Below are positions 3,736-14,836 of a DNA stretch of 64,000 bases, piece by piece. The position numbers were made by a program, and so were the translations under genes. This DNA is from a virus. The notes beneath the pieces are model-generated. The model saw only the letters and a list, made by a program, of their open reading frames with translations, made no database searches and was not told the origin of the DNA. Every line of letters begins with the position of its first letter. Position 1 is the stretch's first letter. The stretch is taken from UHGV virus genome UHGV-0348865. One strand, written 5' to 3'.

Positions 3736-3776
3736 TAAAGCCCTCTTGGATTTCTCCTTGAGGGCTTTTCTTTTAT
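3736..3776. terminator. bidirectional rho-independent terminator between convergent modules
   Basis: Inverted repeat AAAGCCCTC...GAGGGCTTT flanked by an A-run on the 5' side and a T-run on the 3' side, between the last plus-strand gene and the stop of the 1473-aa minus-strand gene. Confidence 0.6.
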
Positions 3777-6700
3777 CACTCCTTAGGTCGAACTCTTACA
3801 CGGAGTCTCGATTGACGCTTACTGCGTTCAAGCTTCTCTGACAATGAGCCACGTTTAATCTTCGGCTTCCCTTCGTCATTAAACTTCTCCAAGAACTTCA
3901 AGTACTCAGTACGATTCGTTGTCTTGTAAGAAGGAATCTTAATATCAGGGTTCTCTTCAATCACACGTCTCATCTTCGCTACATCATCCCTACCAAGCAA
4001 CTTACTCTTAGCCTGTTCAGCTGTAGAACCAAAGATCTTCTCCAGTGCTCTAGATTTGTTACCACCTGCGGAAGAAGCACCAAGTTTAGCAATAGCAGAG
4101 TAATCATCAGCACTAAACCAAGCTACTGGATTATCACCATATTTCTTCTTGTTTTCAGCAGCAGTCTGCAATGCACGTACAAAGCGACGGTTGTTACCAG
4201 CTTTATCTGCACCATGAACCCTGTCTAAAACTTCAGCCACACTAGCCAACTCATCCAAGCTTTTCCCACTCAAGAAAGCTTTCTCTACTTTATCAGCAAA
4301 GACCTCTTCCTGTTGTTTAATGCTTTCCAAGATATCAGAATTTGCTTGAGATCTTTCATCGTCAGGCAGAGCAGAACGAATCTTCTCCATCTCCAATTCT
4401 TCCTCTTGCAGTTTCTTAATATCAGAGTCAACCTTCTGAGCCTCTTCAATAGCCTTCCTAGTATCCGCATCCAAGTTATCAAGTTTACCTTCAGTGTCTC
4501 CAGTAACCTTAACAATCTCTTTCTCAATAGGAGTCATTGATTCGTACTTCTTAGCGAACTTCTCAACATCAGCTTCGATACGAGAACGAGCATTCTGATG
4601 TTCAGTAGGAGTCATAGGCTTCTCAAGAAGTGCATAACGGTTATCCATATAGGAACCAGCAAATGCTTCAGCATCCTCTCTAGATATGCCCTTATCTTCC
4701 ATAGTACGCATCAGGCGGCGATGAATGTCATCACGTTGACGTTGTACTGCCATAAGGTCATTCTCACGCTCTTGGGCCGCTTTAAGCTCTTCACTGCGCT
4801 TAACTCTCTTGTCCACATCAAACTTACGGTTCATCTCTTCCGCTTGCTCATACATCTTGTTCCACTTGGCCTGACGAGCATCTTCCTCTGCATCAGTTAA
4901 ACGACGCTGACGATCAAGGTAATCTGACTCGGCGTTATGGATACGTTCGATATAACTACGGAACTTCTCTGGAGGAACTGGAGAGTTCTTGTCATGGTGA
5001 GCAGCTAACTGTTTCAATGTACGAGATTCCTGAGCCTCACGGACAGGTTTAGGTAAACCTTCCATCATCTTCTCAATCTCACTCTTCTGAGCTGCAATAG
5101 CCTCTAGAGTTTTACGTTCATTCTCAACAGCAGCCTTAGCATCTGAACGAGCCTGAGCCTTTTTCCTGAGGGTAGCAAGACGTTCTTCACGAGCCTGTAA
5201 GTGCTTAGCAGCAGCTTCGTACTGAGAGTTCTTGTTAGCTTTGTTGAAGGCATTCACTTCTCTGTTGTAGGTGTTAATAAACCCATCCCAAATATCCTTC
5301 ATCTGACCAACTTCCAAAGCCTCTTCCCTACCAGCCTTCTCTGAAGATTTAAACTTCCCATCTACAAAGTCATTCATCAGCTTACGCATAGCATCTTTCT
5401 GAGCAGGACGTAAAGGTTCTGAATCAATCAAAGCATCAATCTCAGACTGAAGCTCTTTCTTCTGGTCAACCAGTTTAGGAGCATTCTTGTTATCGAAAGC
5501 TTTGTTCTCTTCTAGAGCTTGTTGATACAATCTATCAAACTCATCTTCACGCTGCTTCTGATACAACCTTTCAGCACGACGTTTCAGACTATCCAAGTTA
5601 GTTACGTTCCCACCTAAACCTTTCTCTTCAGCACGTAATGCCTTAGTAGCAACGTCTTCTGGCAGACCACGTTCCTTAACCCATTCAGCAAAATTAGTTC
5701 GTACAGTGTTGTTCTTAGCAGTAGCAATACCTTGCTGAGAAGCCAGCTGGTTACGAGCCATTTCTTCATGACGTTCAGTGTTGATAGCATTATCTTCCTG
5801 ACGAATACGACGCATCAGCTCCTTAGGATCACCTTTATAAGCCAAGAAGTTTTCAGCAGTAGCTTTAGCTTTAGCAGCCTTAGAGTACAGAGAACGAGCA
5901 AAACGTTCTGCACGATCTTTAGTAGCCTGACGAGCAGCACTAGACATAGCAGCTAAACGTTCTACACCACTTGCCGGTTTAACGTCCTGTACAGCTTCCT
6001 TAGAAGCTTTAGGAGCACGGGCAGGTAATGGCTCAGCTTTGACTGTTGGTTCCTCTACAGTTGGTTCTGGAGCCTGTACGGCCTCTTCTTGAGCACGTTG
6101 CTGTTCCATTGCACGACGCTCCTCTAAAGGATTACGAGCAGGGAGAGGTTCAGCCTGTGGAGCTTGTTCGACCGGAGCTCCTTGAGCAGCAGCTGCCTCT
6201 TCTTCAGCGCGACGCTGTTCAGCCTGACGGATAGCACGTCTTTGCGCAACTAAATCACGAGCTGTAAGAGGAGTTTCTTGAGGAGTAGAAGAAGGAAGAT
6301 TTTCTTCCGTCACAGTACTAGAAGAAGGCTCCCGAACCGGTTCGGTTTCCACGTCATTTTGCGTCTTAAATTTAATGTCATCAACAACTGGTTCTTCTTC
6401 CATCTTAGCACGAGCTTCATCAGCAGTAGATTTAGCACGAGCAACTTCCAAATCACCACGAGCCAGAGAGCGAATAGCCTCACTGTTAGACTCTTGTTGC
6501 TTAACACGTTGAGAGCGAGCACGCTGAGAAGAGAAGCGATTCAGAGCATACTTAGCAGCACCAAGGGTGTTCATAACCAGACTAGGAGAAGAAGCCTCAC
6601 GGAAGCCATCATCAGTCAGGGAAGTCCAACCACGGTCTTGGTTGCTCATGAACTTAGCTGTATTATTCAGAGTGTAAGCATCTTGAATAGGATTAAAACC

Positions 6701-8197
6701 TTCAGGCATACCTTTCAGTTTCTTCAACCCACCAATAGCTTTCTTCATCTCTGGAGAAACATTATCAGCCATCTTCTGTAGTTCAGCAGCTTTCTCTACA
6801 AAGTTATTAAAGTCTTCACCATCACGAGCTTTGAATCGATTTGCTTCATTGTAGAAAGTCTTGTAAGCATCGATGAAATCACGGTCAGCTTGTGTACGGT
6901 TCTTAATATCAATCGGACTACCAGTAAAATCACCAGAAGCTCGGAGAGAAGTTAATTCACGGTCTAGGTTATCTAGAACATCTGTAAGAGCTTTCGTATT
7001 ATCTTTGGTGTAATCAGCCATTGCATCCTTCATAGCAACAGCCTGCTTCTGGTTGTGCTCGTTATCCGCGAATGCTTTACCACGAGTCTTAGCAGGAGAA
7101 GCTAAAGGGTTAAGGCCCGGAATGTTGGAATGCTCTTTCTGGACAGAAGCAGCTTTCTCAGCACGAGCTTGGTCAGTATTAAGAATACGCTGAGCAGCAG
7201 GAGAGTCTACAGCAACAGCATCTGTAATACGGAATCCATTCTCATCTAGAAGGTTTAGAGCAGAAGCAGCGTTAGCAGTTTCAGCCTTAGAGTAAGCCTC
7301 TTTCAATTCATCAATATTTTTAGCACTACGAATCAGTTCATCATCAGCAGCAATATCAGTCTTCGCATATTCTGGAGTGTTCTTGAAGACAGCAGAATCC
7401 GGACGGCTAATCAAACCATGAACTCCACCAACTGCACCACCAAATGCAGCACCCATAGCCCCTTCTTCAATAACCCCTTCCAATGTCTTAGCTAAATCAT
7501 TGTCATCACCATACTTGTTCTGAACTTCAGCAGCACCAACAAGAGCACCACCTTTAGCACCAGCCACTGCGTTACTAGCAACGTTCTGACCAATACGACC
7601 AAGTGTGGACTCAGCTGTACCAACAGCACCCGGAAGGATTCTCTGAGCTGCATAGTTAGCACCACCAACTAAGGCTGCATCTAGAACAGACTTATCTTCT
7701 CCCTCTTCAGGGGTTTGGTCTGCATACGCACGACCGGTCTCACGACCTGCGATGATAGCAGCGGCAGCTAATGGGTTAGCAACTGTCAGACCAATGTCGG
7801 CAACCACCCCAGCATACTGACCAGCAGACTTACCAATCCCATCCTCAATCTTATCCATACGTTCTTTCAAGAGGTTTTGAGCGTTCTCTTGCATACGCTT
7901 CCCGTAACCAGTTTGTGCTCCAGTTAGATCTTCACCAATCTCAACTAAGCCCCCAATACCTCTAGCAAGATTAGCAGAGATGTTAGCACTGCCGGACTGA
8001 AGGGCATTTGACACACCTTGAGCAAACTCACCTATAGCACCACGTTCTTCTTGTTGTGGTTGTGCTACTGGCTGTTCCTCAGGAATAGAGCCACCTGCTG
8101 CCTTATATTGTTCTCTCATTCGAGCTTGTTGCTCCGGAGAGGCATTCAGATACGCAGGAGCTTTGGAAGCTTCTTCCCACGGTTTAATGTTAGCCAT
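3776..8197 (-). CDS. large internal virion / ejection protein (about 1473 aa, coiled-coil rich)
   Basis: Very long A/E/K/R-rich helical protein at the distal end of the structural operon; start placed at MANIKP (AAAGGAGA RBS) rather than the track start at 8242. Confidence 0.55.
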   Translation of the reverse strand: MANIKPWEEASKAPAYLNASPEQQARMREQYKAAGGSIPEEQPVAQPQQEERGAIGEFAQGVSNALQSGSANISANLARGIGGLVEIGEDLTGAQTGYGKRMQENAQNLLKERMDKIEDGIGKSAGQYAGVVADIGLTVANPLAAAAIIAGRETGRAYADQTPEEGEDKSVLDAALVGGANYAAQRILPGAVGTAESTLGRIGQNVASNAVAGAKGGALVGAAEVQNKYGDDNDLAKTLEGVIEEGAMGAAFGGAVGGVHGLISRPDSAVFKNTPEYAKTDIAADDELIRSAKNIDELKEAYSKAETANAASALNLLDENGFRITDAVAVDSPAAQRILNTDQARAEKAASVQKEHSNIPGLNPLASPAKTRGKAFADNEHNQKQAVAMKDAMADYTKDNTKALTDVLDNLDRELTSLRASGDFTGSPIDIKNRTQADRDFIDAYKTFYNEANRFKARDGEDFNNFVEKAAELQKMADNVSPEMKKAIGGLKKLKGMPEGFNPIQDAYTLNNTAKFMSNQDRGWTSLTDDGFREASSPSLVMNTLGAAKYALNRFSSQRARSQRVKQQESNSEAIRSLARGDLEVARAKSTADEARAKMEEEPVVDDIKFKTQNDVETEPVREPSSSTVTEENLPSSTPQETPLTARDLVAQRRAIRQAEQRRAEEEAAAAQGAPVEQAPQAEPLPARNPLEERRAMEQQRAQEEAVQAPEPTVEEPTVKAEPLPARAPKASKEAVQDVKPASGVERLAAMSSAARQATKDRAERFARSLYSKAAKAKATAENFLAYKGDPKELMRRIRQEDNAINTERHEEMARNQLASQQGIATAKNNTVRTNFAEWVKERGLPEDVATKALRAEEKGLGGNVTNLDSLKRRAERLYQKQREDEFDRLYQQALEENKAFDNKNAPKLVDQKKELQSEIDALIDSEPLRPAQKDAMRKLMNDFVDGKFKSSEKAGREEALEVGQMKDIWDGFINTYNREVNAFNKANKNSQYEAAAKHLQAREERLATLRKKAQARSDAKAAVENERKTLEAIAAQKSEIEKMMEGLPKPVREAQESRTLKQLAAHHDKNSPVPPEKFRSYIERIHNAESDYLDRQRRLTDAEEDARQAKWNKMYEQAEEMNRKFDVDKRVKRSEELKAAQERENDLMAVQRQRDDIHRRLMRTMEDKGISREDAEAFAGSYMDNRYALLEKPMTPTEHQNARSRIEADVEKFAKKYESMTPIEKEIVKVTGDTEGKLDNLDADTRKAIEEAQKVDSDIKKLQEEELEMEKIRSALPDDERSQANSDILESIKQQEEVFADKVEKAFLSGKSLDELASVAEVLDRVHGADKAGNNRRFVRALQTAAENKKKYGDNPVAWFSADDYSAIAKLGASSAGGNKSRALEKIFGSTAEQAKSKLLGRDDVAKMRRVIEENPDIKIPSYKTTNRTEYLKFLEKFNDEGKPKIKRGSLSEKLERSKRQSRLRVRVRPKE

Positions 8198-8264
8198 AAC
8201 GTCTCCTTTTATAAATAAAAATGTCCTACCCCCTATATACATTATAGAAGGCAGGACTTAGGTC

Positions 8265-9914
8265 TTATTGAGTGAACCAGCTCGTATCTTCAACAGCTGA
8301 TAGAGCACCATTAAGTTTAGGATTGGTTGCTGCACCACCAACCGCTTCTTCTGCTTGTTCAGAGAAAACACCTAGAGGGTCATAGAAACCACCAGAAGGG
8401 ATTGCACGGTTAACCAATGCAGTAGCCCTCTTCTTGTCCATACCAGAACCGATGTAAGCTTCAATCGTAGCTCTCTTAGCATCAGCAACCCCTTTCATTG
8501 CAGAGGTATGACCAACGTTAGCTTGCTTACGAGCATAAGCAAGAGCAGAATCAGTAGGACGCCATCCAGACTTCAGTGCAAACTTGTTGCCAACACGAAC
8601 GAAGATTGATGGGTCTTCTGCAAAGTGCCCCAAGTCTTCTTCGGTAAGAGAACGAGTAGCACCGATTTCAGCCCTTGCGGAGTTCATGATAGCCTGCATG
8701 TAAGCAGAACGAGCTGTCTGATAGTCTTTATCCTTAACAGCCTTATCAGCCAAATCCAAGTCTTTATTAGACTGGTTAAACAGGCCACCTTTCTCTGCCC
8801 ACTGCTTAGCAACCGTACCTTCAGCTGTATTCTGAGCAAGACGAACTTCTTTCGGGTTAAAGTTAAAACTCTGAGCAGCTTGTTCAGCACGTTCAGCCTT
8901 AACCTTATCACGATAACCAATCAACTCTTTCTGGCGTTCAAAGTTCATGTTAGCTCTTTCTTCAGCGGCACGACGAGTTTCATCAGCACGCTCACGCATA
9001 GTTTGCTCTTGAATCTGTTGACGTCTATCCCATTCAGCATTTTGTCGTTCTTCACGAGCAGCATACAGCGCTTCTTTCTGAGCAGGGTCTACAGCTCTCA
9101 TCTTCAGTAGAGACGGGTCTCCGTTAGCAATAGCAGCTGCGATCGAGTCTTGGGAGAAGCCTTGTTCAATCAGAGCATCACGGTTAGCTTCCAGTTGCTT
9201 CTTAGTCTCATCTTGATTAGCCATTCCCTGACCAATCTGGAAAGCTTCAATAGGAGACTTACCTGACATGATAGAAAGACCTACACCCATTAAACCTGTA
9301 TAGAAACTGGAGTTCTGATAGAAAGGTTCTTTCTGTAGTTTATTCCAAGCTTCTGAAGGATTTTTAGCTTTAGCAACTTGCAAGATATCGTTGTTAACAC
9401 GTTCCTGATCTTTAGCACGAGTAGCAGCAGTCATTCCATCACCAGCGTCTTGTCCTTGAGCAAGAGTATTAATCACACCTTGTGCCTGTTCCACCTGAGA
9501 AGGAGTAAACTCCATAGGACCAGCTTCTAACGGTTTAGTAGGAGGTGTTACCGGAAGAGGTTCTGATTCTGGAGGAATAGAAGAAGGAGAAAGTCCAGCA
9601 GCTTGCATGGTTTCTTGATTCTCAAACTCAGGAAGAGTTACAGCCTGTTGTGCTTGAGGTTGTACATCATTTGGGATATCAGAAGGAAGACCATTACTCT
9701 GAACAGGATTCAACATATTCTGATAATCTACTGAAGTTTGACCTACAAGAGAGGAAAGCCCAGCAGGTATAGCAGGACGTTGATACATAGAAATATCTGC
9801 TGTCTGAGTTGGTCTAGCCATATAAGGAGAGGCCGAAGCCGCTCCCGGATTAACACCATAGAAAGTATTTCTCGGGTCACGACTTCTGACCTGAGCGTAA
9901 GTTGTCTGTTGCAT
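8265..9914 (-). CDS. internal virion protein (549 aa)
   Basis: AGGAGA RBS; position between the Q/N-rich proteins and the large internal protein; no catalytic motif recognised. Confidence 0.45.
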   Translation of the reverse strand: MQQTTYAQVRSRDPRNTFYGVNPGAASASPYMARPTQTADISMYQRPAIPAGLSSLVGQTSVDYQNMLNPVQSNGLPSDIPNDVQPQAQQAVTLPEFENQETMQAAGLSPSSIPPESEPLPVTPPTKPLEAGPMEFTPSQVEQAQGVINTLAQGQDAGDGMTAATRAKDQERVNNDILQVAKAKNPSEAWNKLQKEPFYQNSSFYTGLMGVGLSIMSGKSPIEAFQIGQGMANQDETKKQLEANRDALIEQGFSQDSIAAAIANGDPSLLKMRAVDPAQKEALYAAREERQNAEWDRRQQIQEQTMRERADETRRAAEERANMNFERQKELIGYRDKVKAERAEQAAQSFNFNPKEVRLAQNTAEGTVAKQWAEKGGLFNQSNKDLDLADKAVKDKDYQTARSAYMQAIMNSARAEIGATRSLTEEDLGHFAEDPSIFVRVGNKFALKSGWRPTDSALAYARKQANVGHTSAMKGVADAKRATIEAYIGSGMDKKRATALVNRAIPSGGFYDPLGVFSEQAEEAVGGAATNPKLNGALSAVEDTSWFTQ

Positions 9915-9927
9915 ATTTGTCTCCTAA

Positions 9928-10896
9928 TTAAGTACTAGCCAACCCACCGATTACACCCCCAGCTAATGCACCCCAAGGTCCAAAGGAAGAGCCTGCTGCT
10001 GCACCACTCATACCCCCTCCTAAGAAGCCGCCCCTACCTCCAGATGTTTTAGTAGTTGTAGTTTGTCCGAGAGCACCGTTAAGTACACCTGCTGCACCGA
10101 GTTGGTTATTGATATCTTGCCATCCCCAATTAGCTGCGTTCTGAGCATTCTGGTAGGCATTATCATATTCATTCTGTTGTTGCTGTTGTTGCTGCAATCC
10201 TGCATTCCATTGATTCATTATTTGCTGTTGAGACAAATTAGCACCCTGCTGACCTAGGTTAGAAAGGTTAGAACCAATATTAGAAAGACCTGAGAGAGCA
10301 GCTGCTTGATTCTGTCTATTACCAGAGAGGATGCTTTCAGCTTGGCTAATAGCCGAGTTATAGGCACTGTTGGTAATATCTGTTGCTTGGCCTTGCATCT
10401 GATTCAGAGCATCACCTTGGGCAAAAGATTTAGCCATACGAGCACCTGAACCTTGCTGACCAGCAAACTGTTGAGCTAATTGAGGAAGAGCATTACGTGC
10501 CAAGTTCTGTTGAACCTGTTCATTATTAGCGGTAATGGCTGCTTGCACAGCATCATCGTCATACAGTTGACCAGCGAGAGCACCAATCTGTTCTCCAGTA
10601 ATCCCACCTTGTCCAGAGAGGCTCTGGTAGCCTTTATAGGCATTATCCAGATAACCCAACCCTTGACCTGCTGCATCCATATATTGCTGCGAGAGAGTCC
10701 CTAAAGCACCGGATTGAGCCAAATTATTAAGGGCTTCTGTCTGGTTGTTATTAAATCCTACGTTGTCACGATAGACATAATCCCCTGAACTAGTATTACC
10801 AATCTGCTGGTTAAGCTGGTCAATATACTGTTGAATATATTCAGGGCGAATCATTTGGGAAGTAGTTTTACTACCCCCTCCTCCGAAAAGTCCCAT
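9928..10896 (-). CDS. Q/N/G-rich low-complexity virion protein
   Basis: Strong Gln/Asn/Gly/Ala/Ser bias with a Gly-rich hydrophobic C-terminus; paralogous to the next gene (shared MSLFG/MGLFGG N-terminus and repeated NQ...AG...LSQQ blocks). Confidence 0.45.
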   Translation of the reverse strand: MGLFGGGGSKTTSQMIRPEYIQQYIDQLNQQIGNTSSGDYVYRDNVGFNNNQTEALNNLAQSGALGTLSQQYMDAAGQGLGYLDNAYKGYQSLSGQGGITGEQIGALAGQLYDDDAVQAAITANNEQVQQNLARNALPQLAQQFAGQQGSGARMAKSFAQGDALNQMQGQATDITNSAYNSAISQAESILSGNRQNQAAALSGLSNIGSNLSNLGQQGANLSQQQIMNQWNAGLQQQQQQQNEYDNAYQNAQNAANWGWQDINNQLGAAGVLNGALGQTTTTKTSGGRGGFLGGGMSGAAAGSSFGPWGALAGGVIGGLAST

Positions 10897-10908
10897 ATCA
10901 AATCTCCT

Positions 10909-11961
10909 TTAGTTTGCTCCAAATGCCCCTAAGACACCACCTAAGATATTACTACCTGCTGTGGATAACCAGTTAGACTGACCTCTCTGTTGAGAAAGAT
11001 TAGAACCTCCAATCATAGGTCCAGCCATTCCAGATTGCCCACCTGAGTTATTATAGGAACTCCAAGCATTCTGAGTCTGTTGGTTAGGAGAGAAAGCACC
11101 CATACGACCTGCAATACCTAAACCAGTGATACCAGCACCTAGGAGCTGTTGTCCAGTATTGACTCCCGGAGCAGCATTCTTAATCGTGTACCCAGCCATT
11201 GGACTTACACTGTTTAATACATTAAGCTGATTGTTAAGCTGATTCCACCCATACTGTTGAGAGCCAATAGCGTTCTGCCAATTAATATCAGCTTGAGCTT
11301 GGGCTTGTTGCTGTTGTAGATTACCAGCCATGAGTTGATTCTGGATAGCTTGTTGAGTTGCCTGAACACCTTGAGCACCAAGGTTGAGATTCTGTCCAGC
11401 CAATCCTGACTGAGCACCAAGTAAACCCCTCTGAAAGTTTTGGTCTTGTTGAAGAGCACTGATTCCCATATTCTTGCCACTGATAGTACGGGCTAAGTTT
11501 GTATTAGCACTGTTCAAAGCAGCCCCTTGAGCAGCAGCTCTACGGAGAGAGCCTGAATCAGAACCATTTCCGAGAGATACATTGGAAGCTGCCTTACTGG
11601 TCGCTTGAGCAAGAGCTGAGCTATTCAATCCTTTACTGAAGTTATTAACACCATCAGCAGTTAAACCACCACCGTTGACAATATTCTGATACTGCTGTGC
11701 AAGAGAGTTTAATTGGTCTAACCCTTGCTGTGTACGAGGCGTGTACATATCAGCCAATTGCTTCTGAGTAGTAGAAGCTGCTAAGTTGTTCAGAGCACCT
11801 TGTTGATTGCCATTAAACCCAGCCAGCTGTTGGGAGATGAATCCCGGATCGTTGTTCTGCATATTCTGAGCATTAGCAACAATCTGCTTCAGCAGGGCAT
11901 CAACCTGAGAGGAAGGGGCCACTGTGGTTTTGCTAGAAGCTGATTTTCCAAATAAAGACAT
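10909..11961 (-). CDS. Q/N-rich low-complexity virion protein (paralogue of 9928-10896)
   Basis: Same composition and N-terminal pattern (MSLFGKSASSKTT) as the neighbour. Confidence 0.45.
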   Translation of the reverse strand: MSLFGKSASSKTTVAPSSQVDALLKQIVANAQNMQNNDPGFISQQLAGFNGNQQGALNNLAASTTQKQLADMYTPRTQQGLDQLNSLAQQYQNIVNGGGLTADGVNNFSKGLNSSALAQATSKAASNVSLGNGSDSGSLRRAAAQGAALNSANTNLARTISGKNMGISALQQDQNFQRGLLGAQSGLAGQNLNLGAQGVQATQQAIQNQLMAGNLQQQQAQAQADINWQNAIGSQQYGWNQLNNQLNVLNSVSPMAGYTIKNAAPGVNTGQQLLGAGITGLGIAGRMGAFSPNQQTQNAWSSYNNSGGQSGMAGPMIGGSNLSQQRGQSNWLSTAGSNILGGVLGAFGAN

Positions 11962-11980: not shown

Positions 11981-12763
11981 TTACTTTATACCAATGCTAG
12001 CCAAACGCCTGAGCACTGCTTGTGTTTGTGGACTGTACTGAGAACCTGCTGCATGTGGTGCACTTGCCCTCTGAACTGTTTGAGAAGTAGGAGGTTTACC
12101 AGCAAGCATAGCAGCTACTCCTAATACTGCATTACCAAAGTTCTGCTGAGGCTTCTGGTTTTCTCCTTCCTGCACTTCATCAGAGTAAAACTCTACTGGA
12201 TTGCCACCTAAAGCACCAGTCTTAGAAGCAGCAATTTCTGCCTGAGTTGGGGCTTGAGCAGCCTTCTCCCTATCAAGAGTATCCGGACTAAACTGATTGA
12301 CTGGTTGAACAGCTTGCAAAGCTCCAATAGGGTTAGCAATCTGAGAAGCTGCATCATCATAGAAAGGAAGAAAGTGTTTGTTGTTCATTGAGTCAAGGGC
12401 TTGAGGTGTAAATCCCTTTTTACCGGCAAACATTTGCTTAGCTCCACCTATACCTTCTGAATAACCAACCATTGCTTTCTTAACATCACCATTAAAAGCC
12501 TTTAAGTTATCTCTAATATAACGAGCACCCATATCAATATTCTTTGCTGGGTCAAGTCTGTCTTCTAGTTTGTAACCGTAGTCTTTAGCCAACCCTTTAC
12601 TGATCTGCATTAAACCTACAGGACCAGTTCCAGAGGCTACCGTAGGACGACCACTAGACTCTCTTTGGATTACAGCATGAATCAAAGCAGCAGGAATCCC
12701 ATACTTCTTTGAAGCCTGTTGAACCATTGGGTCTAGTTCTTCAATACCCATTTTAATTGCCAT
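11981..12763 (-). CDS. virion-associated lytic transglycosylase (SLT domain)
   Basis: SLT signature ...VIQRESSGRPTVASGTGPVGLMQISKGLAKDYGY (catalytic E-S and GLMQ motif); strong RBS. Confidence 0.8.
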   Translation of the reverse strand: MAIKMGIEELDPMVQQASKKYGIPAALIHAVIQRESSGRPTVASGTGPVGLMQISKGLAKDYGYKLEDRLDPAKNIDMGARYIRDNLKAFNGDVKKAMVGYSEGIGGAKQMFAGKKGFTPQALDSMNNKHFLPFYDDAASQIANPIGALQAVQPVNQFSPDTLDREKAAQAPTQAEIAASKTGALGGNPVEFYSDEVQEGENQKPQQNFGNAVLGVAAMLAGKPPTSQTVQRASAPHAAGSQYSPQTQAVLRRLASIGIK

Positions 12764-12775
12764 AATATCTCCTTG

Positions 12776-13807
12776 TTATAGTCCAGCAAAAACCTTAGCT
12801 GCATTTATTACAGGAACTGATAAATTAACTACAGTATCAGCTCCTAGGTCGTAATTTTGATCCCATTGAAATAGATATCTTCCATAACCAGTTCCTATGC
12901 TAGAACCACTCATTGTGTGAGATCTCATTTGCTGATACCTCCATCCACTGCCTTGGCCTTTTATCGCACCTATTCCAGAGGTAAGAGGTATCATAGGGTA
13001 TGACATTCCAGTGTTACCACCTCCTGAGCCTATAAAAGTATCCACAGTGAAAGGTGTTCTATTAGTAGAGAAGACACATTGCGTGGTACCCGGAGAGTAA
13101 ATATTCAAACCTCCATTATGTTCCGGAACTCCTGCTCCATTGCAGAATACTGCAATTCTAGCAAACACAGAACCACCCTCATTAGTGTTGCCGTTTATGT
13201 AAGGTCTGTTCTGATAAACACGAATAACCCTGTCATCAGAAGTATAAGATAGTCCTATCCCTCCATCAGACCAATTAGCAAACACAACAGCATTGGTCAT
13301 ATTGAACCCACCGATATTTGGTATCTGAAGGGCATTGTTTATGGTCCCCTGCCAAGCCCAAATACATTGACCGACGACCCCACTATCAGATATCGAGAAG
13401 TAGTCTGCTGTATTAGAAAAGGTAATTCCGTAATTCCTATCCGCTCTAGGCCATATTTGATATACGTTGAACCCACAGTCAAATAAGGGGTTACTGCCGG
13501 GGTTCTGATTCAGAGTAACTCTAAAAGAGGAACTGTTTTCTACGTAGATATTATTCACACAATAAACATCAGGAACTAGGTTAGGAGGGACTTCCCATTG
13601 CCAGCATAAAGAACCGGTGGGAACAATAACTATCTGACCACTGCCATCCCATCCACTAATAGGGAAAGATCTCCCAGCTCCATTAAAGTTAAAACTCCCT
13701 CTTATACTATTCTTGAACTGAGGGAAAGTACTTCCGCTATCAATAAATAAGGGAGCGGGGGTTGCTGGCCCCGGCCCTACTGGTTGTGTCCATATTCCAT
13801 ATGCCAT
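12776..13807 (-). CDS. virion structural protein (function unknown)
   Basis: 343-aa Gly/Asn/Ser/Thr-rich ORF inside the tail gene block. Confidence 0.4.
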   Translation of the reverse strand: MAYGIWTQPVGPGPATPAPLFIDSGSTFPQFKNSIRGSFNFNGAGRSFPISGWDGSGQIVIVPTGSLCWQWEVPPNLVPDVYCVNNIYVENSSSFRVTLNQNPGSNPLFDCGFNVYQIWPRADRNYGITFSNTADYFSISDSGVVGQCIWAWQGTINNALQIPNIGGFNMTNAVVFANWSDGGIGLSYTSDDRVIRVYQNRPYINGNTNEGGSVFARIAVFCNGAGVPEHNGGLNIYSPGTTQCVFSTNRTPFTVDTFIGSGGGNTGMSYPMIPLTSGIGAIKGQGSGWRYQQMRSHTMSGSSIGTGYGRYLFQWDQNYDLGADTVVNLSVPVINAAKVFAGL

Positions 13808-13808
13808 A

Positions 13809-14777
13809 TTACCAACTCCCTATCCTGATTCTAAGAGCACCACTTCCATCATAGAAGTCTATTCTGTTACCATTCATCCACAACTGCGCTCCACCTGTAC
13901 CACCCATAACAAAGTCACCACCAACAGTAAGTCTCCAGTTAGAACCCCACATAGAACCAGCAGTAATCTTATCCGCTGACAAGTTCTGAATCTGGGCGTT
14001 GGAGATGGATACGTTATCAATCTGTGCCCATTGGATTCTAGCGTTAGCAATCTGAGCTGTTGTGATATTGACATTCTTTATATCAGCGAATTCCATCCTA
14101 GCTCGCCCACCCTCAAATACGAAGGGAGTATTCCCAGAGCTGCCATCACCAACAATAAATTTGTTAGCTGTTACTTGGAATTGACTGTTTGTTCCGTTGT
14201 TAGTTAACTTGACCCCAGCATATCTTCCGTTGACTGTAGAGTTAACACCCCACGTAGCTTCATACTCAGAGAGTTTCATATACTGAGAAAGGCTTCCGTT
14301 GATATTTTGCAGTTCTGTCTGAACAAGAGCAATCTCTTGACCTTGATCGTTAACAATACCTTCTACTGTCTGAATCTTAGTTGTGTTACCTTCGATGCTA
14401 GTCTTAAAACCAGATACAGTGCTTTCCAGCTTCACAGGAGGTTGAACAGAATTATCCCAAATATCCTCAGTGGACAGGTTCCCCATCTGGGTTTGGATAT
14501 CTGCAATAGCTGTTTCTATCTCTGTAGTAATTCTATTCTCAAGCCCATCAAATTGTAGATTCATTGCATTAAGAGCTTTAATACGAACATCAATCTCTTC
14601 GTGAATTTCATCTATAGCTTGGAACATTTGGTTAGTAGCTGTACTGACTTTTTGTAATTCATCATACACGGCTACGTTATATGTTTCTGTGTCCTGTACA
14701 TTATTGAGAAACCCAACGTTGTACGGGAGTGTGGTGTTGTTACGACCTGTATTCTTTCTAAATCCTCCAGCACCCAT
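13809..14777 (-). CDS. tail fibre/spike-like structural protein
   Basis: Start placed at the internal Met (MGAGG) with AGGAGG RBS; C-terminal repetitive segment ARIQWAQIDNVSISNAQIQNLSADKITAGS resembles fibre repeats. Confidence 0.5.
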   Translation of the reverse strand: MGAGGFRKNTGRNNTTLPYNVGFLNNVQDTETYNVAVYDELQKVSTATNQMFQAIDEIHEEIDVRIKALNAMNLQFDGLENRITTEIETAIADIQTQMGNLSTEDIWDNSVQPPVKLESTVSGFKTSIEGNTTKIQTVEGIVNDQGQEIALVQTELQNINGSLSQYMKLSEYEATWGVNSTVNGRYAGVKLTNNGTNSQFQVTANKFIVGDGSSGNTPFVFEGGRARMEFADIKNVNITTAQIANARIQWAQIDNVSISNAQIQNLSADKITAGSMWGSNWRLTVGGDFVMGGTGGAQLWMNGNRIDFYDGSGALRIRIGSW

Positions 14778-14807
14778 TCCATAATCCCTCCTTGCTAGAT
14801 AATCTAA

Positions 14808-14836
14808 AAACAATAAAAGGGGCACGAAGCCCCTTG
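14808..14836 (-). terminator. intra-operon hairpin with U-tract (possible attenuator)
   Basis: On the minus strand AAGGGGC-TTCGT-GCCCCTT followed by TTATTGTTTTT, between the Big_2 gene stop and the next gene's RBS. Confidence 0.4.

Follow-up and report, generated by a model that had tools for sequence, protein, structure and literature searches.

The closest described systems to the locus studied here are phages SU10 and phiEco32. In SU10, two ejection proteins of 350 and 322 aa, i.e., gp21 and gp22 (gp23 and gp24 in phiEco32), are encoded between the SLT lytic transglycosylase gp20 and the internal proteins gp23 and gp24. By mass spectrometry (MS) of purified SU10 virions, gp21 and gp22 were detected with 53% and 49% coverage (PMC4281155). 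In a second SU10 paper (PMC9509320), the presence of both proteins in virions is listed again (Supplementary Table 1), and gp20 is listed as an ejection protein. In the same source, gp20 to gp24 were found in virions and were absent from in-vitro genome-release intermediates by SDS-PAGE and MS (Supplementary Fig. 4C). By the published work, the gp21 and gp22 proteins are packed in the DNA-filled head and leave with the tail needle on genome release, and no density assignable to these ejection proteins is reported in the cryo-EM maps. The two papers (PMC4281155, PMC9509320) give neither a structure nor a copy number for them, nor do they say where they go once ejected or whether they are essential, and their Q/N-rich composition is not commented on in the accessible passages. 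In a review of ejection proteins (PMC8954989), neither SU10 nor this composition comes up.

The window, i.e., the whole 64-kb stretch of DNA that was analysed, was recognized as a phiEco32/SU10-like coliphage of the genus Kuravirus, with 96.8% nucleotide identity to Kuravirus records. The pair belongs to a conserved cassette of five genes, which encode the SLT hydrolase, the paralogues B and A, a protein of ~500 aa and a protein of >1000 aa. The genes are given below in the direction of transcription.

11981..12763, minus strand: SLT lytic transglycosylase, 260 aa, corresponding to SU10 gp20 (PF01464, E 1.2e-23; phrog_12507)
10909..11961, minus strand: gene B, an ORF of 350 aa, orthologue of SU10 gp21 and phiEco32 gp23, net charge ~ +7
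9928..10896, minus strand: gene A, an ORF of 322 aa, orthologue of SU10 gp22 and phiEco32 gp24 ("putative DNA injection protein"), net charge ~ -8
8265..9914, minus strand: internal virion protein of 549 aa, corresponding to SU10 gp23 and phiEco32 gp25 (phrog_12130)
3776..8197, minus strand: large internal virion protein, 1473 aa, corresponding to SU10 gp24 and phiEco32 gp26 (phrog_14629 at residues 16-1488)

The initial annotation, made from the sequence of the window, had placed two adjacent paralogous genes of 322 and 350 aa between the transglycosylase and the internal virion proteins. Both ORFs were confirmed, and the neighbouring ORFs with their family matches agreed with the placement: the SLT gene is directly upstream of the pair, and the genes of the 549-aa and ~1473-aa internal virion proteins are directly downstream. 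The genes at A and B are tightly packed with gaps of 12-19 nt, and an AGGAG Shine-Dalgarno sequence lies 5-8 nt 5' of the ATG of both A and B. The length of the large internal virion protein is counted from its RBS-supported start, i.e., 1473 aa, with AAGGAG before Met16 and none before Met1. The cassette, the 549-aa protein included, was kept at ~42% identity in a relative (L011) whose capsid protein and portal are of the SU10 type.

The A protein was identical to SU10 gp22 at 320 of 322 residues (99%), and the B protein to SU10 gp21 at 339 of 350 (97%), with the same lengths and the same order. The few substitutions gave nothing functionally distinct. The pair had been suggested to be ejected internal proteins. 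Because orthologues with 97-99% identity were detected by MS in SU10 virions and lost on genome release, this reading is supported, and it was already known. Virion proteomics, which had been proposed as a check, is positive in the published SU10 work, and absence from virions is not the case for the orthologues. On sequence identity, A and B are the ejection proteins already described in SU10 and phiEco32, and the observation on the pair is real, though not new.

The relation between the two genes was examined by alignment. A and B showed 30% identity over 309 aa in BLASTP with compositional adjustment (E 4e-13), and their Smith-Waterman score was 276, compared with 93.5 +/- 12.9 in 300 composition-preserving shuffles (z=14). 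By these scores, A and B are true paralogues, as the initial annotation had it. Both matched the HMM of phrog_4287, a wide phage family annotated as "DNA ejection protein", i.e., A at residues 1-310 (E 2.9e-109) and B at residues 1-350 (E 2.8e-117). In Pfam, no family was found for A or B at E<=0.01, and only noise and sub-threshold glycine-zipper matches appeared at E<=10. Codon differences from SU10 were 44 synonymous and 2 non-synonymous in gene A, and 62 synonymous and 11 non-synonymous in gene B; over SU10 and phiEco32 together, the ranges were 33-62 and 2-11. Both genes are under strong purifying selection. The net charge of the two types is opposite and conserved, with a mean of -6.8 in A-type (-10 to -2) and +5.2 in B-type proteins (-1 to +11).

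The composition of the pair is biased, and the described dominance of Gln, Asn, Gly, Ala and Ser was borne out: these five residues make up 62-63% of both proteins. Their Q+N content (25.2% and 26.3%) is the highest in the window when its 34 ORFs with 150 aa or more are compared (median 9.7%). Charged residues account for just 6.6-8.7%, Cys and His are absent, and B also has no Glu. Repeated NQ...GAL...LSQQ blocks had been described in the pair. As internal repeats they did not stand: the best off-diagonal self-alignments scored 60 and 61, and shuffled sequences scored 56 and 59.5 on average; what remains are collinear paralogous positions common to A and B. A Gly-rich hydrophobic tail had been assigned to the first protein. 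The Gly-rich tail is there, but both proteins have one, and its hydropathy is only mild, with maximum Kyte-Doolittle 19-aa means of 0.94 and 1.16 in the pair, both below the usual transmembrane-helix threshold of 1.6. The tails are placed as follows.

9931..10047, minus strand: C-terminal tail of A, rich in Gly and mildly hydrophobic, residues 284-322, GGRGGFLGGGMSGAAAGSSFGPWGALAGGVIGGLAST, conserved across the family
11092..11154, minus strand: first Gly-rich segment of B, residues 270-290, QQLLGAGITGLGIAGRMGAF, aligned with the A tail, with the B hydropathy peak at residue 273
10912..10962, minus strand: second Gly-rich tail of B, with which the protein ends, residues 334-350, AGSNILGGVLGAFGAN

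The second tail of B comes after a B-specific insertion rich in Q, N, S and G. In a search of the C-terminal tails for glycine-zipper families (PF05433, PF13441 and PF13488), the best match had E 0.54 and 10.7 bits, under the cut-off of 24.2. The distant homologue P0139 scored 21.5 bits for glycine zipper, also below its cut-off of 25.

AlphaFold2 monomers built with 41-sequence alignments were of low confidence (pLDDT 52 and 46). They predict helices throughout and a coil-like state for the Gly-rich tail, and the highest pLDDT was in the helix predicted over the Q/N-rich block. This core is present in both proteins.

11212..11391, minus strand: Q/N-rich conserved helical core of B, residues 191-250, 47% Q+N, predicted helix at 192-251, pLDDT 71-77
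10102..10281, minus strand: Q/N-rich conserved helical core of A, residues 206-265, 50% Q+N with a Q7 run, predicted helix at 196-275

The core bears on whether the pair is prion-like, since it had been suggested that a prion-like composition may drive self-assembly. On that reading, disordered Q/N-rich regions would template one another into an amyloid-type fibre or gel after release. The composition agrees with it: a stretch of at least ~60 aa with high Q/N and few charges is present in both proteins, the best 60-aa windows reaching 50% and 47% Q+N, which is comparable to yeast prion domains, and the AlphaFold2 models are of low confidence. However, prion-like domains are typically disordered and keep their composition rather than their positions, whereas the Q/N-rich block is predicted as a helix with the best pLDDT. 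In the 41-sequence alignment, residues 201-250 of B, the richest segment with 45-48% Q/N, form the best positionally conserved, gap-free block and include invariant or near-invariant Asn residues. The excess of synonymous changes and the chance level of internal repeats also argue against the prion-like reading. In distant family members, Q+N falls to 6.6% in the same domain, which means that the fold is independent of the composition. The suggestion of prion-like self-assembly was thus not upheld, and we consider it highly improbable. The Gln/Asn richness looks like a conserved helical design, not a prion-like one. The A core has a 100-degree hydrophobic periodicity (p=0.025 against shuffles); over the six predicted helices, amphipathic periodicity reached p<0.05 in only three.

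Many distant homologues differ from the Kuravirus pair in their C-terminal end. The SDxxxK autocleavage motif of Peptidase_S74 was found immediately past the Gly-rich tail in ~25 of the 144 top distant homologues, and the domain was confirmed by Pfam in nine of the proteins tested. One of these is the Grimontviridae "putative DNA injection protein", Cronobacter phage A24 gp089 (410 aa). This protein is a phrog_4287 member (E 7e-126), its body and Gly-rich tail are collinear with A and B, and its gene is placed after tail-fibre genes and before the genes of large internal proteins. In A24 gp089 and in metagenomic S74-bearing phrog_4287 proteins, the tail is followed by the self-cleaving chaperone, whereas Peptidase_S74 (PF13884) was absent from A and B in Pfam; these relatives are also single-copy, unlike the Kuravirus pair. 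S74 domains are known to act in trimers only, as in endosialidase, T5 pb1 and MYRF.

These relatives raise the possibility of a trimeric, fibre-like periplasmic extension in place of a membrane pore. Helical trimers would lengthen the axis of the nozzle and needle, and the Gly-rich tail would cap the trimer or its tip. The S74 motif and domain next to the tail, with their trimer-only action, and the long predicted helices of 60-80 residues are consistent with it. But A and B themselves have no S74 domain, the amphipathic periodicity is significant in just half of the predicted helices, and a trimer is also compatible with a 9-mer channel made from three trimers. This alternative is judged unlikely.

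In the tail modules of podoviruses, distant homologues also stand next to cell-wall hydrolases or form fusions with them. The 39 distant relatives of more than 450 aa had no BLASTP match to Kuravirus gp19, gp20, gp23 or gp24; therefore, the fused C-terminal parts are not recognisably any of these four proteins. The conserved linkage or fusion to hydrolases suggests that the proteins act in the envelope once they are ejected, and it weighs against a reading as an internal head core or packing component. Such a component would act mainly inside the capsid, by organising the DNA spool in the prolate head or by stabilising the portal barrel, and its ejection would be incidental. The SU10 portal does have a barrel, and a loose association of P22-type ejection proteins with barrels of this kind is assumed in the discussion of the Pa223 preprint (bioRxiv 10.1101/2025.06.11.659172). 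The very low charge of the pair would suit packing against DNA, and the SU10 supplementary figures describe genome layers and "inner core proteins". However, ordered core density is not seen in SU10, and the conserved Gly-rich tail is hard to reconcile with a purely DNA-packing role. The head-core reading seems a little less probable still than the trimeric extension.

A sequence search of the PDB with single sequences and with profiles gave nothing meaningful, the best profile match having E=1.2. Neither T7 gp14 and P22 gp7 nor any further chain in the PDB was related to the pair in sequence. The homology to P22 gp7 was rejected, with an hhalign probability of 1.4%. Neither a PDB sequence match nor the hydropathy of a T7 gp14-type outer-membrane channel was thus found in the pair. 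A relation was found to Pa223 gp56 and LUZ24 gp53 of Pseudomonas phages (Bruynoghevirus), which are 99% identical to each other and belong to phrog_7477. The phrog_4287 family profile aligned with that of the LUZ24 gp53 and Pa223 gp56 proteins in hhalign at 96.3% (E 1.7e-9, 220 columns), a score that may be inflated between such compositionally biased profiles. LUZ24 gp53 matched phrog_4287 (E 2e-10), and the intermediate protein P0146 matched both families, but neither A nor B matched phrog_7477 directly at E<=0.01. Because of the profile alignment, the cross-match and the intermediate, and of the missing direct match, phrog_7477 appears to be, at the level of profiles, a sister family of phrog_4287 and not the same family. 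Pa223 gp56 is a virion protein by MS and was proposed as an outer-membrane channel, a role predicted with AF3 and a transmembrane predictor only (bioRxiv 10.1101/2025.06.11.659172).

Taken with the virion data of SU10, a probable reading is that A and B are the paired small ejection proteins of Kuravirus and form the membrane-proximal segment of a trans-envelope DNA conduit. Once the needle detaches, the two proteins would pass through the portal and the nozzle channel. They may then oligomerise via the Q/N-rich amphipathic helices, which are conserved and uncharged, and A and B may join in a hetero-oligomer of complementary charge. The Gly-rich tails would insert into a host membrane, and the oligomer would make up the outer-membrane-side part of the conduit. 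The peptidoglycan would be opened by gp20, and the two larger proteins would complete the conduit. The channel-forming role given in the initial annotation is plausible; with AlphaFold monomers this poor, the exact part that A and B would play in the channel is inferred.

A broader and quite speculative proposal, which we hold to be rather improbable, is that the phrog_4287 domain is a widespread and previously unrecognised trimeric block of ejectosomes, assisted in many lineages by the self-cleaving S74 chaperone set directly behind the Gly-rich tail. In Kuraviruses, a duplication that gave two proteins of complementary charge (A ~ -7, B ~ +5) would have taken the place of the chaperone. The pair would co-assemble via polar Q/N "zipper" helices, the conduit segment so formed would be uncharged and filled with water, and the Gly-rich tails would penetrate the outer membrane.

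For A and B themselves, the result is a confirmation of annotation, and its remaining value is modest. The links added by this analysis, i.e., the profile homology to Pa223 gp56, the S74-bearing and hydrolase-fused relatives, and the conserved opposite charges of the paralogues, are new. They give handles on how the ejectosomes of Kuravirus and Bruynoghevirus cross the envelope. Phages of both genera are used in phage therapy.

Among known systems, T7 gp14, P22 gp7 and DEV gp73 are small membrane-inserting ejection proteins of model podoviruses thought to act at the outer membrane. The likeness of A and B to them is functional only, i.e., a small ejection protein is encoded first in the cassette, and A and B differ in being about twice the size, duplicated and without a classical transmembrane helix. 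Pa223 gp56 and LUZ24 gp53 are of similar size to A and B: the protein has 313 aa, is found in virions by MS and ends in a Gly-rich C-terminal tail, although identity to A and B in the profile alignment is ~18% and the N-terminal 70 residues are unaligned. The 549-aa and 1488-aa proteins encoded downstream of the pair had no significant BLASTP match to LUZ24 gp51 and gp50, and therefore the parallel in gene order is one of size and position only. In that order, the gene lies upstream of ejection proteins of ~500 aa and ~1000 aa, as A and B do, but it is present as a single copy, whereas Kuravirus carries a tandem pair.

The adjacent genes A and B encode a paralogous pair of ejection proteins already known from SU10. 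The DNA of the region was 95-97% identical to many Kuravirus coliphages, i.e., phiEco32, SU10, and others. A corresponds to SU10 gp22 and phiEco32 gp24, "putative DNA injection protein" (320/322 residues identical), and B to SU10 gp21 and phiEco32 gp23 (339/350), each at the same position. Both matched phrog_4287, the PHROG family "DNA ejection protein" (A, E 1e-109; B, E 1e-117). The pair and three neighbors form part of a minus-strand late operon in the window, with these features:

8197 (start, at Met16), minus strand, large internal protein of about 1473 aa, downstream of A and B (ribosome-binding site and phrog match)
8265-9914, minus strand, 549-aa ejection protein, downstream (ORF list)
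9928..10896, minus strand, A, ORF of 322 aa
10909..11961, minus strand, B, ORF of 350 aa
11981..12763, minus strand, SLT transglycosylase of 260 aa, upstream (PF01464, E 1.2e-23)
12776-13807, minus strand, DUF6453 protein of 343 aa, SU10 gp19 equivalent (PHROG label "membrane protein")
13809-14825, minus strand, tail-needle gene, SU10 gp18 equivalent (mechanical start GTG, 338 aa)

An AGGAG ribosome-binding site precedes each of the five cassette genes, from the SLT transglycosylase to the large internal protein, and the intergenic gaps are 12-19 nt. The coordinates of A and B in the initial annotation agreed exactly with the ORF list. It had placed them between the SLT transglycosylase and internal virion proteins, and indeed the SLT gene lies upstream and the 549-aa and ~1473-aa genes downstream.

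The inference there that the proteins are internal and ejected proved correct and is already published for the SU10 orthologs, for which the proposed virion proteomics has also been done. In the LC-MS/MS data for purified SU10 virions reported by Mirzaei et al. 2014 (PMC4281155), gp21 and gp22 were detected with 53% and 49% coverage. By SDS-PAGE and MS, as described by Siborova et al. 2022 (PMC9509320), SU10 gp20-24 were found in virions but not in genome-release intermediates obtained in vitro, and were named the five ejection proteins. The assignment was restated in a 2023 comparative paper on Kuravirus (PMC9965538). Packaging of A/B-type proteins in the head and their release at genome ejection have thus been shown for the SU10 orthologs. 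A core role inside the capsid is improbable for A and B; the SU10 head is described with no resolved density for gp20-24 (PMC9509320). A and B thus match ejection proteins assigned by experiment at 97-99% identity, and the family-level links of phrog_4287 are useful leads rather than surprises.

Both proteins are unusual in composition. Their Q+N contents (A, 25.2%; B, 26.3%) were the top two among the 34 window ORFs of at least 150 aa (median, 9.7%), and Q, N, G, A, and S together made up 62-63%. Charged residues were 6.6-8.7%, Cys and His were absent from both, and Glu from B. A and B were 30% identical (E 4e-13, BLASTP with compositional adjustment), and their Smith-Waterman score was 14 sd over composition-preserving shuffles. 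By these sequence comparisons the paralogy exceeds shared composition, and the tandem Q/N-rich pair of the initial annotation is confirmed. The "repeated blocks" are not internal repeats, self-alignment scores (60 and 61; shuffle means, 56 and 59.5) being no better than chance; they are collinear motifs of the paralogs. The Gly-rich hydrophobic tail assigned to A exists, but B has one too and both are merely mildly hydrophobic. Against SU10 and phiEco32, synonymous codon differences in A and B were 33-62 and non-synonymous 2-11; judged from these counts, the genes are clearly coding and under constraint.

Prion-like assembly was suggested by this composition, and the best 60-aa windows reach 47-50% Q+N, but the behavior of the sequence makes it highly improbable. 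In an alignment of 41 sequences that covers both paralog families and identities as low as about 20%, the richest Q/N blocks (B residues 201-250) had the best positional conservation (top-residue frequency 0.58-0.59), were gap-free, and held several invariant or near-invariant Asn. In the AlphaFold2 models, poor overall (pLDDT 52 and 46), these blocks are predicted to be long helices, and local confidence peaks there (68-77). Helical hydrophobic periodicity was above shuffles in three of six predicted helices, and the domain is kept in distant members with Q+N down to 6.6%. Our reading is that the abundant Gln and Asn make up the polar face of conserved amphipathic helices rather than a disordered prion domain.

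For SU10, it was proposed that the ejection proteins lengthen the nozzle into a trans-periplasmic channel and that gp20 digests peptidoglycan (as put forward in PMC9509320). A and B would traverse the portal and nozzle channel and oligomerize, perhaps with each other, via the conserved Q/N-rich helices. Their Gly-rich tails may then enter a membrane, which would make the pair the membrane-proximal part of a conduit; once the cell wall has been opened by gp20, gp23 and gp24 would complete this conduit. The tails were under the thresholds for transmembrane helices and Pfam glycine-zipper families, and no relation of A and B to T7 gp14, P22 gp7, or any PDB chain was found.

Gene calls in the locus needed adjustment. 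The mechanical ORF of the large internal protein opens at ATG 8242 (1488 aa), without a ribosome-binding site there. AAGGAG precedes Met16 at 8197 (window 8195-8242, minus strand), giving a product of 1473 aa as in the phiEco32 and SU10 annotations, and the phrog match starts at residue 16. The tail-needle gene probably starts at an internal Met, because its PHROG match begins at residue 17 and phiEco32 and SU10 annotations give 322 aa. Between the 549-aa and 1473-aa genes lies a strong terminator-like hairpin (8223-8257, minus strand; 15-bp stem, then TTTTTATTT), suggesting that the largest ejection protein is expressed by attenuated read-through or from a transcript of its own. At residues about 200-225 of the 549-aa protein lies a hydrophobic, conserved segment that contains Gly (FYTGLMGVGLSIMSGKSPIEAF); it is a candidate membrane-active element and is kept in a relative at 32% identity (L011:10983-12455). 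The DUF6453 gene, between the tail-needle and SLT genes, is a non-structural gene inside the structural operon; its SU10 equivalent is listed as undetected in virions (PMC9509320 Supplementary Table 1). The ARAGORN search for tRNA genes over the 64 kb was negative. Across the window (1-64000), the sign of the GC skew flips at about 4 kb and about 36 kb, coinciding with borders between oppositely transcribed gene blocks.

The cassette (SLT, B-type, A-type, ~490 aa, ~1100 aa) was kept in an Enterobacter-associated relative at ~42% identity. Net charge was opposite and conserved in the two paralog lineages (A mean, -6.8; B mean, +5.2). A 59.9-kb contig, L011 (Logan SRR24679947), carries a divergent SU10-like module, i.e., SU10-type capsid protein, portal, and the five-gene cassette. 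Protein P0094 has a further record, on an Enterobacter cloacae contig of 317.7 kb. The SU10-like phage group is considered strictly lytic, and the module in Enterobacter assemblies, including a very long contig, hints at a prophage, phage-plasmid, or assembly chimera.

The family profile of the phrog_4287 type matched that of the LUZ24 gp53 family (hhalign probability, 96.3%; E 1.7e-9; 220 columns), and gp53 matched phrog_4287 directly (E 2e-10). Pa223 gp56, 99% identical to LUZ24 gp53, is present in virions and was proposed as a T7-gp14-like outer-membrane channel of the ejectosome from an AF3 nonamer and transmembrane prediction (2025 preprint, bioRxiv 10.1101/2025.06.11.659172); this channel role is itself a prediction. 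Similarity of the 549-aa and ~1473-aa proteins to their LUZ24 counterparts was not detectable.

Searching 1.84 billion representative proteins with the profile gave 555 relatives at E<=1e-3. Among the top 144, 33 were fused forms over 700 aa with the domain N-terminal. In P0183, encoded downstream of SU10-type adaptor genes, a Hydrolase_2 cell-wall hydrolase follows the domain. A distant homolog of 1153 aa (L004:9834-13295) is fused with Peptidase_S74 and Hydrolase_2, and another (L005:568-3200) is directly followed by a Glucosaminidase protein, suggesting that the ejection cassette also exists in modular, "polyprotein" form. An SDxxxK motif directly after the Gly-rich tail was found in about 25 of the same 144, and Pfam assigned this region to Peptidase_S74 in nine of the tested proteins, including the single-copy homolog of Cronobacter phage A24 (Grimontviridae). 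Peptidase_S74 is a self-cleaving intramolecular chaperone of trimeric phage fibers. These relatives suggest a trimeric fiber-like periplasmic extension, which we consider unlikely for A and B. The Kuravirus proteins terminate where the cleaved product of the S74-bearing relatives would end.
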